A stretch of 64,000 nucleotides of DNA from an uncultured bacterium (GTDB lineage Bacteria > Patescibacteriota > Andersenbacteria > UBA10190 > CAIZMI01). The notes beneath the pieces were generated by a model. The model was not told the DNA's origin and made no database searches. It worked only from the letters and a program-made list of their open reading frames with translations. This document shows positions 8,539-13,963 of this stretch, piece after piece; within the stretch, counting starts at the first letter, position 1, and every line of letters begins with the position of its first letter. The translations under genes were made by a program, and so were the position numbers. The stretch lies in the NCBI GenBank assembly GCA_903934015.1, contig CAIZMI010000034.1:20378-84377 (forward strand). The letters are read 5' to 3'.

Positions 8539-9192
8539 CTACTTGCCGACTTCCCGATTTTTACCTAACCTTGTTTTAACAAATTCATAAATAATCGGCA
8601 CCACCGAAAGACCAATAATCACCAAGATCACAAGTGAGAAATTTTCTTTAACTGCGGGAATGTTCCCAAAGAAATACCCGATTAGTGTAAAACTAAACAC
8701 CCACACAAAACCCCCCGTTGCATTATAATAAATAAATTTTCGATACTCCATCTGCCCAAGACCAGCCACAAATGGAGCAAATGTCCTGACAATCGGCACA
8801 AAGCGTGCCAAGAAGATTGTTTTCCCGCCGTGCTTTTGGTAGAAGGCATTAGTTTTATCGATATGCGCTTGATTAATCGGAATCCTCGGGCTATCAATCA
8901 ATTTCTGCCCAAAATAGTAGCCGATCCAATAATTAACCGTATCACCCAAAAATGCTGCCCCCCAAAGCAAAAACAAAAGACCAACGATATTAAACGACCC
9001 AATCGCCGCAAAAGCCCCGGCAGCAAAAAGCAACGAGTCACCAGGAAGCAACGGTAAGAAGACCAAACCCGTCTCCGCAAAAACAATTAAAAACAGAATC
9101 AAATATGCAAAAACACCATATTGAGTAATTATTTCTCCCAAATGAGTATCAATATGCAAAATAAAGTTAAATATCGCCGAAATTATACCCAT
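8539..9192 (-). CDS. DedA/TVP38 family membrane protein
   Basis: Conserved FAETGLVFLPLLPGDSLLFAAGAFAA and an FLARFVP motif. Confidence 0.85.
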   Translation of the reverse strand: MGIISAIFNFILHIDTHLGEIITQYGVFAYLILFLIVFAETGLVFLPLLPGDSLLFAAGAFAAIGSFNIVGLLFLLWGAAFLGDTVNYWIGYYFGQKLIDSPRIPINQAHIDKTNAFYQKHGGKTIFLARFVPIVRTFAPFVAGLGQMEYRKFIYYNATGGFVWVFSFTLIGYFFGNIPAVKENFSLVILVIIGLSVVPIIYEFVKTRLGKNREVGK

Positions 9193-9282
9193 GGAAATAT
9201 TGTTCGTGAGAGATAAAAACTATGCACACTTTTCAATTTTTTAAGGATATCATGACCACCCCATTTGGCCAACGCACCCCAA

Positions 9283-9849
9283 TTAACCACCAAACTTGAT
9301 TACCCACTGTTTAAACTTAATAACACCATCTTTATTGTGTTTTTTAATTCCCGCCAATATTTCTTCACTACTTTTTTCCACTGCCCCACCGTCACCTTTT
9401 TTAGAAAAAAATTTATCAGAAAAGCAAATAATCTCTTCCTCTATCGTGACCGGTTGCATATTACGTTTTGGCAATTTCAATTTCTGATTTTCAATATCTT
9501 CAACCGACAACCCCACACCAACATGTCGCTCACAAACAAGAGCGTGCTTTGCAAGACCTTCTTTTTCCAACAACTCTCTTCCTAAGTAGCCGTGACAAAT
9601 GTAGGGCATCGTTCCATGACAATCAATCTCAGGAGCACTGGTTAAAAATATCCCCACGTCATGCAACATCCCCGCTTCTTCAATAAACTGCATATCGGGA
9701 TTAAATTGTGGTACCTTCCTTGCAACCTCAAGCGCCTTGTTTGTCACCGCCAAACTGTGCGCCAATAAAATCGAATAAGCCCGCGAATCGGGCAAGTAGT
9801 ATTTTTGCAGTAATTTAATGGGTTCCATTTTTAAATTTTTCAGAACCAT
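9283..9849 (-). CDS. HD-domain phosphohydrolase
   Basis: H…HD motif (LLAHSLAV…MLHDVGI). The start is taken at the internal Met (MVLKNLKMEPIKLL) to avoid overlapping the upstream gene. Confidence 0.7.
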   Translation of the reverse strand: MVLKNLKMEPIKLLQKYYLPDSRAYSILLAHSLAVTNKALEVARKVPQFNPDMQFIEEAGMLHDVGIFLTSAPEIDCHGTMPYICHGYLGRELLEKEGLAKHALVCERHVGVGLSVEDIENQKLKLPKRNMQPVTIEEEIICFSDKFFSKKGDGGAVEKSSEEILAGIKKHNKDGVIKFKQWVIKFGG

Positions 9850-9883
9850 AAAATCGACTTCTTTTCGAATAACAAAAAATTTC

Positions 9884-11053
9884 CTATCGATTTCCTTTTG
9901 CCCGATTGTGCGTCTTACACAACATCTCACAATTTTTAGCTGTTGTTTTACCACCCTTGCTCCACGCCGATACGTGATCGGCTTCCATTTCACCAAAACT
10001 CCAAATTTTACACTTGTTAGCATCATGGCCAATTACACAATTTGAGCAATTTGATTGACCTTTTTTCTCTGCTTTAGCGGTCTGTGTTGAGTAAATACTT
10101 CTCTTTGTTGCTTCATCAAAGATTCGAACGTCAAGCAATTTTGTGTCAGTGGAGCCGCCGAGAATATACTCAAAAATGCCTTTGCGATTTTTGACGTACG
10201 GATCACCATAGAGCTTTCGTACCTCGCCTGTCACCTTAACGGGATCATAAGCTTTCTTATGGTATTGCTCATATAGTCGCCCCCACTCCAGTCCTCGCAT
10301 CTCACTTTCAACATCTATAAACACACTTGAAACCCAATCAACTACACTACCGAAATACCTTTTCAGCTCGGCAACATTTTTATCAAAACGATGTCGGCTC
10401 ATATAATCGCCAACGTTGCCTTTGCTTACCCAATCAAGCGCACGCTCCAAAAAATCCTGCCTGTTAACACTACCCGCTACATACGCGCCCCATTTTTGGA
10501 TGTTGGCATTTTGGCTATTGCTAAACTCTTCTTTACCAAGCGTCACAAATGGCCCAGAATACACGGCGTTAAGCAACTCCTGATTATTAAGTGGAACTCC
10601 GGCGATGTTGATTGTTTTAAACCATTCTTTTATCTCGCTTTCTTTCCCTTCGCATTCGTAAATAAGCAATGTTGTTATTAAAATTTTATCCTGCTTGTCT
10701 TTTGCCATACCACTAAAATTTTGTGGATTGCCGTTTTCATCTTTGATGGCAAATTTATCAGTCACAAAACGTCCAATACTTGTTATACGTTGTTGCCCAT
10801 CCAAAACTTCCAGCCCATCGTCATCGACTTTATTAAAATAAATTAGGCCAATCGGATAGCCCTTAAGGATTGACTCAATAACAGCTACTTCTTTTTTACC
10901 GCCGTCGGAAGAATATATGTAGTTGCGCTGATATTCTGGCTGAATCGTTAATTTGCCAGACAAGCCAAACAACCCCTTGCCCTCCAATTCGTTATAAACG
11001 AATCCTTCGCAAATAGCTTTGATGGTAATTTCGATTTTCAAAGTAGTTTTCAT
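9884..11053 (-). CDS. DUF262 (ParB-like, DGQQR motif) plus C-terminal HNH endonuclease; GmrSD-like nuclease
   Basis: The [11 protein letters not shown] motif is in the N-terminal half. The C-terminus has an HNH signature ([14 protein letters not shown]…[11 protein letters not shown]…[15 protein letters not shown]). The start codon at 11053-11051 lies 1 nt after the upstream methyltransferase stop. Confidence 0.7.
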
Positions 11054-11054
11054 A

Positions 11055-12230
11055 TTATTTTTTTTTATGTCTAATGAGTACTCTTTGATAAACTTTTTCA
11101 TGTAAACCAGCTCGAATAACTACTCCACTTGCATTCAAATCATAAACTCCCCTTTTTTTGAATTTATCTAAATATGCTTGCTTACATTCCGTTGATTTGT
11201 ACACTTTTGTTTTTAGTTTATATAAATCTTCGTTTTCACACATCCCAACAATACCAAACTGTTCTGGGGAGTGTTTATCAAGAAAACTAATCGGTACACC
11301 CATTAATCCGTTGTAATCACTTGGAATATTTTTTACTAAAGATACTTCTAAGGCATTATAATTATCGTATTTTTCAAATGGTTTTTTCGTTACAAACTTA
11401 ATAATCTCGGCTTCAGTCATGAGTGGCAACGGCTGATGACGACGTCCATGATCAAGATTGGTGAACCAACGAACACCTTGCACTCGGGTGATATAAACTT
11501 TCTTACCTCTCTCATTTGTTTTAATTTCACGAACTTGATCCAAATTAGCAATCTTTTCGGGTATCTCAAAAAACATCGCGCCAGCATTGACTTTGTAATT
11601 GTTGCCCAACCACACTTTATTCTCTTTAATTAGTGGAAATATTTCTTTGTAGGTAATTGCATTCAAGTTGCCAATGATCAAAAACTTTTTATCATAATCA
11701 ACAAGTTGTTTTATATACTCGCGAAACAGGCTAAACGGAGGATTTGTTACCACAATATCAGACTGCTTCAGAAATTCTATAGATTCATTGCTACGGAAAT
11801 CGCCGTTTCCTTTAAGCAGAGTTGTTACATTTTGATCCTGCCTCAACAAACACTCTATATCCTCAAGGTTTACTGCACCATCATTATTTAAATCTTTTAC
11901 CTCATTGATTTCAATTTTGAACGGCTGTTTTCTAGTGAACCTTCTTAATCCTTCTATCCCAGACAACGGAAATATAGTGCCGGTAATAGGTGATGGAACA
12001 TAACTTGTAGTAATAAGTTTTTTAAGTCCAATATTATTGAATTTTAATACAAAGTATTTGAAAAAATTACTTTCATACGGATCGTCACAGTTGCAATACA
12101 CTACTTTGCCTCGAAACACATCAGGATTGTATTCCAAATACGCTTCAATCTCTTTCTGGATATCTACGAATTGCGTATAGAACTCGTCGTTCTTTACTCT
12201 TTTTGCGTTAGTAAGATTTTTGTTTGCCAT
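11055..12230 (-). CDS. DNA methyltransferase, adenine-type (EcoRI-methylase-like N-terminus, NPPF catalytic motif)
   Basis: KNDEFYTQ near the N-terminus and the motif IV sequence [13 protein letters not shown]. Confidence 0.75.
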
Positions 12231-12245
12231 AATTTTATTCCTATT

Positions 12246-12452
12246 CTACGGATAAAATTCAAATTCGCTCATTATTTTTTTATTATCGACAATCTGCTCC
12301 TGTATCGCATCTCGAACAGAAGCAATCATCTCGATATCCCACTTTATTTTTTTGGACGAAGGAATAAAACTTTGCATCAATTCGAAAATTTGATTATCAA
12401 CAAAATCCTGCCTTTCTATTTGCTTATTAGTTAATTTGGACATTTTTATCAT
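12246..12452 (-). CDS. small hypothetical protein (69 aa)
   Basis: The ORF is trimmed to its internal Met because the longer version overlaps tRNA-Ser(GCT). Confidence 0.25.
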   Translation of the reverse strand: MIKMSKLTNKQIERQDFVDNQIFELMQSFIPSSKKIKWDIEMIASVRDAIQEQIVDNKKIMSEFEFYP

Positions 12453-12465
12453 TTTTCCGTTTATT

Positions 12466-12552
12466 ATTTCATTTGCGGAGAGGGTGGGATTCGAACCCAC
12501 GAAACCCTTGCGGGTTTAATGCATTAGCAAAGCATCCTCGTAGGCCTCTTGA
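12466..12552 (-). tRNA. tRNA-Ser (anticodon GCT), type II
   Basis: Minus-strand ggagagg acceptor; long variable-arm hairpin aaaccc-gcaa-gggttt; T-arm gtggg-ttcgaat-cccac. The anticodon loop ttGCTaa is closed by a weak T-T pair. Confidence 0.75.
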
Positions 12553-12580
12553 GTACCTCTCCTTGCGTAAAAACCATACC

Positions 12581-13633
12581 TTATTTGTTCATCTTTCTCA
12601 AGTGCTTTGGATTATGAGAACCAATAAGTTCTATGTATTGTTTTACAGCTGCCCTACTCTCGATAAAAATATCTCGATCCCGCATATTTGCCCAAACACC
12701 GATTTTGCGGAGAGATTCGTGAACTGAATTAAGCAAAGGCGGAGAAGCGGATGTAAAACTAATCTTTTTGTAGCGATAATCTTTGCCTCTTATACGATAT
12801 TGATGCCAATAAACCGAACCATCCGTATCAAAAAGACCTCGAATACAAGGAATTAAATAATTCCGCTTTCTCTTGATCCACATTGGAATATCTATTTTTT
12901 GTCTAATTTTGTTTCCCTTAACCAGACCCAAGTGTTCTATACAAAAGTGAACCATCTCCGTCCGGCTTACGCGATAATCGTTTGCTAAAGCATCTTTACT
13001 AATTATCACGCTCGGTCTAACTCCAAACAATTTCTGAATTAAACTGCATACAAAGATACCGTATTCATGATCATCATACCTGTGTAACGTAACAGTTAGT
13101 TGATAACGGGTTATTCCACCATCACCAAGCATCAATCCGACAAACTCGGCTAATTCCGGTGATTTCATAGGCTTTCTAAACGGCAAACTTTTCCAAAGTA
13201 TTTTGTGTTCTTGATATTTCCCTTTCTCATTCCACCATTTTGTCCACTGCACTCGGCGATAATCCTCATCCATACCAATCCGTCCATATTTTTTAAACAT
13301 TGCTTTACCACCCAAACTGCCAATTTTTTCAAGGCGTTTATTCCATTTTAATAAACTGGCAGAGGTAGGTATTTGTACTCCGCTTTTTTGAGCTAGCGTT
13401 TTAGCGTGGATAAATGACATGTGATACTTCTCTCTCTTCCAATCACAAAGCGTACGCCTATTAATGGCCAACAAACCGGCTAAGAATGGTGTTGATACAT
13501 TTAATTTTGAAGCAACGTTTTCAATAAATTTGCGTTGCTCTTCAGGTTCAAAAATGATCCTGTCTAACTTATCCACTTCATCTATCATGTGGTAATTATA
13601 CAACAAATACGAACATTTTACGAACGTCATTGT
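12581..13633 (-). CDS. double-motif LAGLIDADG homing endonuclease, free-standing
   Basis: Two LAGLIDADG motifs, FVGLMLGDGGI and IRGLFDTDGSV. The start is taken at the internal Met (MTFVKC…) because the 5' extension of the ORF covers a conserved structured non-coding element. Confidence 0.7.
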   Translation of the reverse strand, partial: TMTFVKCSYLLYNYHMIDEVDKLDRIIFEPEEQRKFIENVASKLNVSTPFLAGLLAINRRTLCDWKREKYHMSFIHAKTLAQKSGVQIPTSASLLKWNKRLEKIGSLGGKAMFKKYGRIGMDEDYRRVQWTKWWNEKGKYQEHKILWKSLPFRKPMKSPELAEFVGLMLGDGGITRYQLTVTLHRYDDHEYGIFVCSLIQKLFGVRPSVIISKDALANDYRVSRTEMVHFCIEHLGLVKGNKIRQKIDIPMWIKRKRNYLIPCIRGLFDTDGSVYWHQYRIRGKDYRYKKISFTSASPPLLNSVHESLRKIGVWANMRDRDIFIESRAAVKQYIELIGSHNPKHLRKMNK

Positions 13634-13639
13634 TTTTGC

Positions 13640-13737
13640 ACAATCCGATTCTTGTGCAAAACAGCATTCGCGTTTAGCGAATGCTGTTTTGTGTACATTT
13701 TTTTGTTTCACTAAGCGAAACAAATCTCGAGTGTCCC
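13640..13737 (-). repeat. conserved tRNA-linked module 1 (Arg-locus copy)
   Basis: The minus strand reads ctcgagatttgtttcgcttagtgaaac…aatgtacacaaaaca, a hairpin (cagcattcg…cgaatgctg), then ttttgcacaagaatcgga. The element at 63660-63760 after tRNA-Glu is near-identical, and the Lys copy at 6158-6245 is related. Confidence 0.6.
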
Positions 13738-13830
13738 CGGCAGGACTTGGCCTCGCCTCAAAAATACTGATGTATTTTTGGGCTGGCCACCGCCTCGTGT
13801 TATCTTCGAATAACACTCCGGCGTTCAAGT
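13712..13830 (-). repeat. palindromic element: inverted copies of the tRNA-Arg 3' end (15 bp, ccccggcaggacttg) flanking a two-hairpin core
   Basis: The core (cgccggagt…hairpin…acgaggcggtggccagccc…hairpin…gaggcgaggcc) also occurs inside the interrupted tRNA-Arg copy at 14035-14137. Both hairpins show compensatory base changes between the two copies. Confidence 0.55.
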
Positions 13831-13889
13831 CCTGCCGGGGGATTTAGAAAAAAGACAATCGCACCGCGATTGCCATTTTTCTAAATCTG

Positions 13890-13963
13890 TGTCCCCGGCA
13901 GGACTTGAACCTGCAACCTTCAGCTCCGCAAGCTGACGCTCTGTCCAGTTGAGCTACAGAGAC
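13890..13963 (-). tRNA. tRNA-Arg (anticodon GCG, inferred)
   Basis: Acceptor gtctctg pairs with cggggac through two G-U pairs. D-arm gctc-aactggac-agagc; anticodon stem tcagc/gctga with loop ttGCGga; T-arm gcagg-ttcaagt-cctgc; discriminator A. Confidence 0.7.

Follow-up and report, generated by a model that had tools for sequence, protein, structure and literature searches.

How does a nuclease with a DUF262 domain and an HNH finger work when its gene lies a single base behind that of an adenine methyltransferase, and which of the two proteins chooses the target? We address these questions for a gene pair in a 64,000-nucleotide stretch of DNA (hereafter, the window) from an uncultured bacterium of the Patescibacteriota (GTDB lineage Andersenbacteria; UBA10190; CAIZMI01; contig CAIZMI010000034.1 of GenBank assembly GCA_903934015.1). 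All features of the module lie on the minus strand. The pair consists of M, an EcoRI-family N6-adenine methyltransferase of 391 residues (11055-12230) that is the modification and probable specificity subunit, and R, a protein of 389 residues (9884-11053) that joins a DUF262 domain, a ParB/Srx-like nucleoside triphosphatase (NTPase), to a zinc-finger HNH nuclease, and that we read as the restriction effector.

We conclude that the pair is a BanLI-type two-gene restriction–modification (R-M) module, and we give the full explanation developed below a probability of about 0.6. In the broader claim, that it is an R-M or defence module of the methyltransferase plus DUF262–HNH family, our confidence is high. 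The original prediction, made from the letters of this stretch, had proposed such a role together with translational coupling of the two genes, and both proposals find support here. It had also offered two logics for the pair: classical control of the nuclease by the methyltransferase, or a methyltransferase that marks self DNA against a nuclease sensing something else. Comparative data favour a third logic, in which the methyltransferase would supply the nuclease with its specificity.

Two genes form one conserved unit

The methyltransferase gene ends in ...CAT AAA AAA AAA TAA, and a single A (11054) separates its stop codon (11057-11055) from the ATG of the nuclease (11053-11051). This TAA-A-ATG junction (11051-11057, minus strand) is the one that had been predicted, and it points to translational coupling. 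The list of open reading frames (ORFs) also holds an alternative nuclease of 405 residues that begins at an upstream ATG at 11101; the 389-residue start at 11053 is favoured, since nearly all of the 120 closest homologues have 389 residues and align from that ATG.

We followed this arrangement across 80 related loci, the best 80 (77-84% nuclease identity) among at least 587 species that encode a nuclease relative when one genome per species is scanned. Of the 80, 73 encode an EcoRI-family methyltransferase upstream of the nuclease and in the same orientation; the other seven mostly lack upstream DNA or carry cargo genes alone up to the contig end. The methyltransferase adjoins the nuclease in all 44 complete plasmids that encode a full-length nuclease, down to 37% nuclease identity. 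Because the M-then-R order is shared by 73 of the 80 loci, the pair is no chance juxtaposition, and the expectation that a nuclease of this kind would not usually share an operon with its methyltransferase fails for this family. The junction takes the form stop, one nucleotide, ATG in 28 of the 80 loci, and that of an ATGA overlap in 15.

A second EcoRI-family methyltransferase is found in none of the 80 loci; the only extra methyltransferase seen is a Dam-type cargo gene in L021. This speaks against the second, strand-complementing methyltransferase that a Type IIS reading needs, and it indicates that the two-gene unit is the complete, conserved form.

Genes can nonetheless be accommodated within the unit. 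Same-strand genes totalling 0.4-3.1 kb occupy the exact gap between M and R in about 25 of the 80 loci (cargo-slot loci: L002, L009, L010, L015, L019, L021, L026, L033, L041, L049-L051, L053, L056-L059, L061, L066, L068, L070, L073, L076, L077, and L092). The cargo includes Bro-N, RhuM, Fic, DUF2130, OLD-like AAA+TOPRIM, HEPN AbiU2, AntA, T5orf172, Schlafen/AlbA_2, and SMODS-like nucleotidyltransferase genes, as well as a ParB-like gene with Dam. Type I operons take up inserts of the same kinds (RhuM, Fic, DUF2130, Bro-N, OLD-like, and Abi genes), a further hint that the cassette acts as a defence locus.

Three observations bear on this slot and on the linkage. The A-rich AAATAATATGAAA ahead of the nuclease start is retained even where cargo is the upstream gene, and the closest methyltransferase relative listed (89% identical) has RhuM between M and R. 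In L013 (4454-5620), one of the seven loci without a linked methyltransferase, the nuclease is 82% identical to that of the window, RhuM lies upstream, and no EcoRI-family methyltransferase is found in the 4.4 kb upstream or anywhere in the 9.3-kb contig. A host could tolerate this apparent orphan only if the nuclease does no harm by itself, or if the methyltransferase is encoded elsewhere.

Both proteins retain their catalytic residues

All catalytic residues are present in the methyltransferase and the nuclease of the window, and Pfam confirms the domains that had been called in both. The methyltransferase matches EcoRI_methylase (PF13651) over profile positions 1-345 of 345 (1.3e-124), and the PADLOC profile MTase_II (4.8e-105). 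DEFYTQ occupies residues 15-20, and the catalytic motif IV, NPPF, is read from the sequence at residues 163-166 (11733-11744, minus strand). Across the 66 loci that have both genes, the 10-residue block with NPPF has a conservation of 0.94; in alignment A2, T162, N163, P164, and P165 are invariant. The structural model of the methyltransferase is of moderate quality, with a predicted local distance difference test score (pLDDT) of 72.5, and Foldseek relates it to generic Rossmann methyltransferases in the PDB.

The methyltransferase also contains a conserved DxDxDG, EF-hand-like (dockerin-like) loop at residues 113-124 (11859-11894, minus strand), with the family consensus DIDGDGEFNLKD; D113, D117, G118, and D124 are each kept in at least 60 of the 66 homologues, and the loop may be a metal-binding site. 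Sequence searches of the PDB gave chance matches only, a dockerin loop for the methyltransferase and triosephosphate isomerase for the nuclease, and were set aside. JGI names the window methyltransferase (P0271) 'mRNA-degrading endonuclease toxin of MazEF toxin-antitoxin module', an evident mis-annotation.

The nuclease matches GmrSD_N/DUF262 (PF03235; 6.9e-21) over residues 36-165 and HNH (PF01844; 1.9e-6) over residues 354-389. DUF1524 (PF07510) is not detected by Pfam, where the HNH matches are PF01844 and PF14279 only. In this the nuclease departs from GmrSD, BrxU, and SspE, which carry DUF1524 in place of PF01844 and have about 550-600 residues as against 389. Over nearly its whole length (residues 20-388, profile positions 17-371 of 372) it matches the PADLOC profile REase_II (PDLC03418; 6e-81), which is derived from REBASE Type II restriction endonucleases. 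Other PADLOC matches, to Menshen NsnA (1.5e-25), PD-T4-2_A (1.3e-13), and HEC-05/06, are limited to the N-terminal domain. NCBIfam has no model for either protein.

Residue conservation was read from an alignment of 54 full-length nuclease relatives at 33-62% identity. The DUF262 domain carries the nucleotide-binding signature DGQQR at residues 85-89 (10787-10801, minus strand), and the HNH finger reads C336-x2-C339 ... D359-H360 ... N374 ... C379-x2-H382-N383 (9905-10048, minus strand). Q42, R43, D85, G86, R89, Q158, E159, N162, C336, and H360 are invariant in the alignment, and Q87, Q88, C339, D359, N374, and C379 are at least 90% conserved. The catalytic His (H360) and Asn (N374) of the finger are thus in place, and the conservation as a whole indicates that the HNH finger and the ParB-like nucleotide site are both intact. 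The region between the two domains is helical and conserved. The AlphaFold2 model is of high quality (pLDDT 92.9), and its Foldseek matches in the PDB are weak and at the level of single domains: BrxU (top, E = 1e-2), ParB CTP-binding N-domains, the Gme HNH nickase, and McrA, with SspE at E = 4.6.

Specificity-like variation lies in the methyltransferase

Type II restriction endonucleases normally diverge faster than their methyltransferases. Here, across the 66 loci, the nuclease is the more conserved protein in 98.6% of locus pairs, with a mean pairwise identity of 0.81 versus 0.625 for the methyltransferase. The rate of nonsynonymous change (dN) is 0.12 for the nuclease versus 0.29 for the methyltransferase, and its ratio to the synonymous rate (dN/dS) is about 0.05 versus 0.12. 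When homologues of the two proteins are ranked independently, the nuclease homologue at rank 120 is 83% identical to the query and the methyltransferase homologue 66%. Family members range from 350 to 413 residues for M and from 386 to 394 for R. Synonymous sites are saturated in about 73% of pairs, and GC content at third codon positions (GC3) of the nuclease spans 0.21-0.74 and correlates with host GC (r = 0.74). Saturation and host-adapted GC3 together point to ancient divergence under strong constraint, and they rule out recent horizontal spread as the source of the high nuclease identity.

Within the methyltransferase, conservation is bimodal. Core columns score 0.6-0.94, and two hypervariable modules score far lower: V1 (residues ~211-250; 11481-11600, minus strand; columns 0.12-0.30, with flanks at 0.6-0.9), a putative target-recognition element, and V2 (residues ~331-380; 11091-11240, minus strand; columns 0.03-0.11), a putative second one. 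V1 falls into 9 discrete and unrelated classes and V2 into 20; these reassort freely, giving 43 combinations in the 66 loci. Module identity is 0.73-0.81 within a class (0.81 for V1) and 0.18-0.20 between classes (0.20 for V1). Judged by evolutionary pattern, discrete classes that reassort are the signature of target-recognition domains, as in HsdS of Type I systems.

The nuclease has no variable segment, and its lowest 10-residue window scores 0.55. It is also indifferent to the modules beside it: nuclease identity is 0.825 where both V classes match and 0.813 where both differ, and nucleases that are 90-93% identical occur beside wholly different V1 and V2. The co-variation of R with the specificity elements of the methyltransferase that would mark a classical Type II system is not seen in these loci. 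Were the nuclease to read the target itself, it should change whenever the target does; the simplest reading is that the methyltransferase alone holds the specificity. With variation confined to the methyltransferase and a near-invariant nuclease that ignores the V1 and V2 classes, the nuclease most likely has no specificity of its own. For the more pointed claim, that specificity resides in M and that R is guided by it, we judge the odds to be roughly even.

A natural fusion joins the two proteins. On two independent contigs (L087 4001-6067, P0191; also P0392), an EcoRI-like methyltransferase domain is joined to DUF262–HNH in a protein of 688 residues, in a host that reads UGA as Trp. The catalytic motifs of the methyltransferase domain have decayed in the fusion, with FPSF in place of NPPF and no DEFYT, and the 7 kb of L087 hold no separate methyltransferase. 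The methyltransferase fold seems to be kept only as a DNA-recognition module for the nuclease.

BanLI, a probable relative already described

The original prediction had regarded the pairing as atypical. It is, instead, already captured by the REBASE-derived Type II profile of PADLOC, and its architecture matches that of BanLI from Bifidobacterium animalis subsp. lactis (PMC3990576, PMC13091528). BanLI consists of a 41.7-kDa methyltransferase, aligned by its authors to M.EcoRI, followed by a gene for a 43.5-kDa restriction protein (PMC3990576). The R.BanLI gene is annotated as encoding a DUF262 domain-containing protein, and REBASE lists the system as Type II (PMC3990576, PMC13091528). Single-molecule real-time sequencing revealed 'novel single stranded asymmetric' methylation at RTC(m6A)GG, where m6A is N6-methyladenine; the cloned system lowered plating of P1vir about 10-fold, and pre-methylation by M.BanLI raised transformation 1.8-fold (PMC3990576). 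The authors view BanLI as Type II/IIS, an 'incomplete Type IIS' system that has lost its second methyltransferase (PMC3990576, PMC13091528).

The window pair shares with BanLI the order of M then R, the single methyltransferase, the architecture, and similar protein sizes. BanLI serves as its prototype by published description and not by sequence comparison; in a search seeded with a Rhodococcus plasmid homologue, B. animalis is not among the 120 matches listed. Given the diversity of V1 and V2, the site of the window methyltransferase is likely not RTCAGG. The BanLI reports are the sole relevant ones that our literature searches found, and these searches gave no mechanistic description of the methyltransferase/DUF262–HNH family.

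A proposed mechanism and its alternatives

We propose that the methyltransferase acts on adenine within a short sequence, probably an asymmetric one, whose methylation would mark self DNA, and that the nuclease would act as the restriction effector against DNA that lacks the mark. With no sequence specificity of its own, the nuclease would be recruited or licensed by the methyltransferase on unmethylated sites, a subunit logic like that of Type III and Type I systems. Its DUF262 domain would serve as a switch dependent on nucleoside triphosphate (NTP), working by dimerisation or as a clamp, that gates cleavage by the HNH finger.

A bolder version, which we put forward tentatively and at somewhat less than even odds, is that the family forms a distinct R-M class and not a branch of Type II. 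An EcoRI-family methyltransferase with two reassortable modules would be the sole specificity subunit, and a near-invariant ParB-like NTPase–HNH protein would be a sequence-blind effector, loaded or licensed at unmethylated sites and clamping or sliding between sites in an NTP-dependent manner, as ParB does with CTP, before cutting. If true, this would be a functional analogue of the Type III Res subunit built from unrelated parts, and it would explain one-strand methylation by a single methyltransferase. Type III enzymes handle one-strand methylation of an asymmetric site by NTP-dependent two-site communication.

Several points weigh against these proposals. M.EcoRI, of the same Pfam family, is an independent Type II methyltransferase with a PD-(D/E)XK partner, and both REBASE and PADLOC class the present family as Type II. 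The M–R complex, NTP dependence, and the mode of cleavage are predicted features. V1 and V2 would act as target-recognition domains on the strength of their evolutionary pattern; no solved relative maps them, and they are not mappable on a DNA-bound structure. Tight coupling is dispensable, as shown by loci in which up to 3.1 kb of cargo separates the two genes. Since the 80 loci were chosen for their nucleases' similarity to the query, the identity of these nucleases to it is inflated; pairwise comparison, dN/dS, and independent ranking lessen this bias and do not remove it. Finally, restriction by BanLI is weak (10-fold; PMC3990576).

The likeliest alternative, though an unlikely one, is a classical Type II system (IIS- or IIP-like), in which the nuclease itself recognises the methyltransferase site and cuts it if unmethylated, and V1 and V2 would be loops on the surface with no bearing on specificity. 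The REase_II and MTase_II matches in PADLOC and the opinion of REBASE and of the BanLI authors (PMC3990576, PMC13091528) speak for it, as do the separate R and M genes, the independence of M.EcoRI, and the few loci in which an upstream gene resembles those of C proteins. Such a nuclease should, however, carry a variable region that follows the methyltransferase modules, and this one does not; combinatorial, discrete V1 and V2 classes are a hallmark of specificity domains. Methylation by BanLI is confined to one strand (PMC3990576), and no second EcoRI-family methyltransferase occurs in the 80 loci to complete it; once the DNA has replicated, a simple Type IIS enzyme would kill its own host in such a one-strand state, which counts against this alternative, as does the orphan nuclease of L013. 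The invariant nuclease beside many methyltransferase specificities would equally be expected of a context-independent m6A reader. This brings in a second alternative, which we consider improbable: a modification-sensing nuclease, either of Type IV, cutting foreign modified DNA, or, like SspE, activated or positioned by the m6A of the host itself whatever the context, with a methyltransferase that provides the mark or has an independent function and does not choose the target. DUF262 is common to GmrSD, BrxU, SspE, Menshen NsnA, and PD-T4-2, BrxU is the top fold match, and the dead-methyltransferase fusion, which cannot protect self DNA, is a better fit to a modification-dependent enzyme. The C-terminal domain, however, is PF01844 and not DUF1524, the length is 389 residues and not about 570, BrxU and SspE match the fold weakly, and linkage to one methyltransferase family is near-obligate. 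BanLI, moreover, weakly restricted phage from non-methylating Escherichia coli, and pre-methylation slightly helped transformation (PMC3990576), both of which point towards R-M.

The pair could also be a selfish cassette, mobile or of the addiction type (a homing-type HNH nuclease with a protective methyltransferase, for instance), that mainly promotes its own maintenance and spread and not defence. The range of the pair over many phyla, plasmids, and a phage, and its position near tRNA genes in 10 of the 80 loci, would suit such an element, and the coupled order of M before R would suit post-segregational killing. Saturated synonymous sites and host-adapted GC3 speak instead of long residence and not of rapid spread, the window lacks integrase, transposase, and att repeats, and the cargo and island neighbours are of the defence type. 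We regard this reading as very improbable, although addiction and defence are not mutually exclusive.

The setting of the window locus

The predicted arrangement of tRNA-Ser(GCT), small ORF, M, and R is confirmed on the minus strand. Reading in the direction of transcription, tRNA-Arg(GCG) (13889-13963) is followed by a LAGLIDADG-type ORF (12581-13828), tRNA-Ser(GCT) (12475-12562, by ARAGORN; a possible insertion landmark), a small ORF (12246-12452) that encodes 68 residues from its first ATG, the M and R genes, and an HD-domain gene (9283-9852). The LAGLIDADG ORF encodes a free-standing LAGLIDADG_3-domain protein (~411-415 residues) and is present in every retrieved contig of the same organism.

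The small ORF has no match in Pfam, NCBIfam, or PADLOC and no tblastn match across the 80 related loci, and it is probably outside the system. We considered it as a controller protein and rejected it: it lacks a helix-turn-helix (HTH) match and is not conserved, unlike the XRE-type HTH ORFs found elsewhere. Such ORFs, of about 70 residues and absent from the window, end 3-5 nt before the methyltransferase start in five genome loci (L012, L022, L036, L045, and L073) and in L084 (4653-4862), like Type II C proteins. Scans for promoters and terminators gave no excess over shuffled expectation.

The description of the context as island-like stands in part. The neighbours of the module are different in every genome, and in 10 of the 80 loci a tRNA gene, not always of the same kind, is found at most 1 kb away. 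The window itself has no integrase or transposase, its small ORF is not conserved, and the 3' end of tRNA-Ser has no att-like duplicate at positions 9000-13000. An island-like reading is reasonable for the family and is not demonstrated for the window locus. In L085 (7237-8731), which has the closest nuclease relative listed (87% identical), the pair adjoins a CD-NTase and Cap15 pair of the cyclic oligonucleotide-based antiphage signalling system (CBASS) and a tyrosine recombinase, as in a defence island.

Distribution and significance

The family is very large. A word-indexed search finds at least 8000 clusters of nuclease relatives at 90% identity; the best 120 of these are 81-100% identical to the query, full length, and spread over many lineages of the candidate phyla radiation (CPR). 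An exhaustive search of representatives at 50% identity gives 5007 matches at E <= 1e-3 and 430 at E <= 1e-30. Hosts of the 80 loci include Patescibacteria, Omnitrophota, Chloroflexota, Bacteroidota, Proteobacteria, Elusimicrobiota, Verrucomicrobia, Planctomycetes, a Cohnella, and one archaeal metagenome-assembled genome. The pair is carried on plasmids of Enterococcus faecium, Leuconostoc, Pediococcus, Apilactobacillus, Rhodococcus, Arthrobacter, Moraxella, and Bifidobacterium choerinum, and a Flavobacterium phage has it as a moron beside the tape-measure gene. On the B. choerinum plasmid pBC (L093; 9422-10588 and 2380-3198), the methyltransferase is intact and the nuclease frame is broken by insertion of the chloramphenicol-resistance gene cmx; the annotated part of the nuclease is its C-terminal 272 residues only.

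The window pair is an ordinary copy of a known, database-annotated, and mechanistically unexplored R-M family: standard defence-finding tools already label the cassette as Type II R-M. What is new is at the level of the family, where the variation that looks like specificity is all in the methyltransferase and the 'Type II' label probably hides a division of labour like that of Type III. The mechanism has apparently never been studied, in a family that reaches plasmids of Enterococcus, lactic acid bacteria, and Actinobacteria as well as a phage. If the specificity of the nuclease does come from a module-shuffling methyltransferase, the family would offer a programmable restriction system that is compact, needs two proteins, and includes a ParB-type nucleotide switch, and it would be a new solution to the problem solved by Type III enzymes. 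It would also be of practical use in predicting restriction barriers from methylomes, for example in bifidobacteria, enterococci, and uncultured CPR bacteria.

Comparison with known systems

The pair shares elements with several known systems besides BanLI. GmrSD, BrxU, and SspE share with the nuclease an N-terminal DUF262 domain with DGQQR, a helical region, and a C-terminal His-Me finger nuclease. They differ in that theirs is a DUF1524 domain in a protein of about 550-600 residues, stand-alone or linked to phosphorothioation genes, and directed to or stimulated by modified DNA, whereas the nuclease studied here has a CxxC...CxxH HNH domain of the PF01844 family, 389 residues, and linkage to an m6A methyltransferase. 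Type IV enzymes are normally stand-alone.

The methyltransferase shares PF13651 and NPPF with that of the EcoRI R-M system, where the partner nuclease is, by contrast, a PD-(D/E)XK homodimer with its own specificity. Related methyltransferases on small plasmids of E. coli and Klebsiella occur without a DUF262–HNH partner. Type I systems, in which target-recognition domains of HsdS are shuffled, resemble the present family in having two reassorting specificity-like modules and the same hitch-hiker genes between the modification and restriction genes; they differ in having a separate S subunit and an HsdR-type motor, whereas here the modules lie inside the methyltransferase.

The closest parallel in proposed logic is with Type III enzymes such as EcoP15I. 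In both, specificity variation would be held by the methyltransferase alone, next to a conserved nuclease subunit that bears an NTPase, and a single methyltransferase methylates one strand of an asymmetric site in Type III systems as in BanLI; an M–R complex in the present family is a prediction. The parts are different: Type III Res combines a superfamily 2 helicase-type ATPase with PD-(D/E)XK, and Mod is a beta-class methyltransferase, whereas the family described here would reach a similar division of labour with a ParB-type domain, an HNH finger, and an EcoRI-family methyltransferase.

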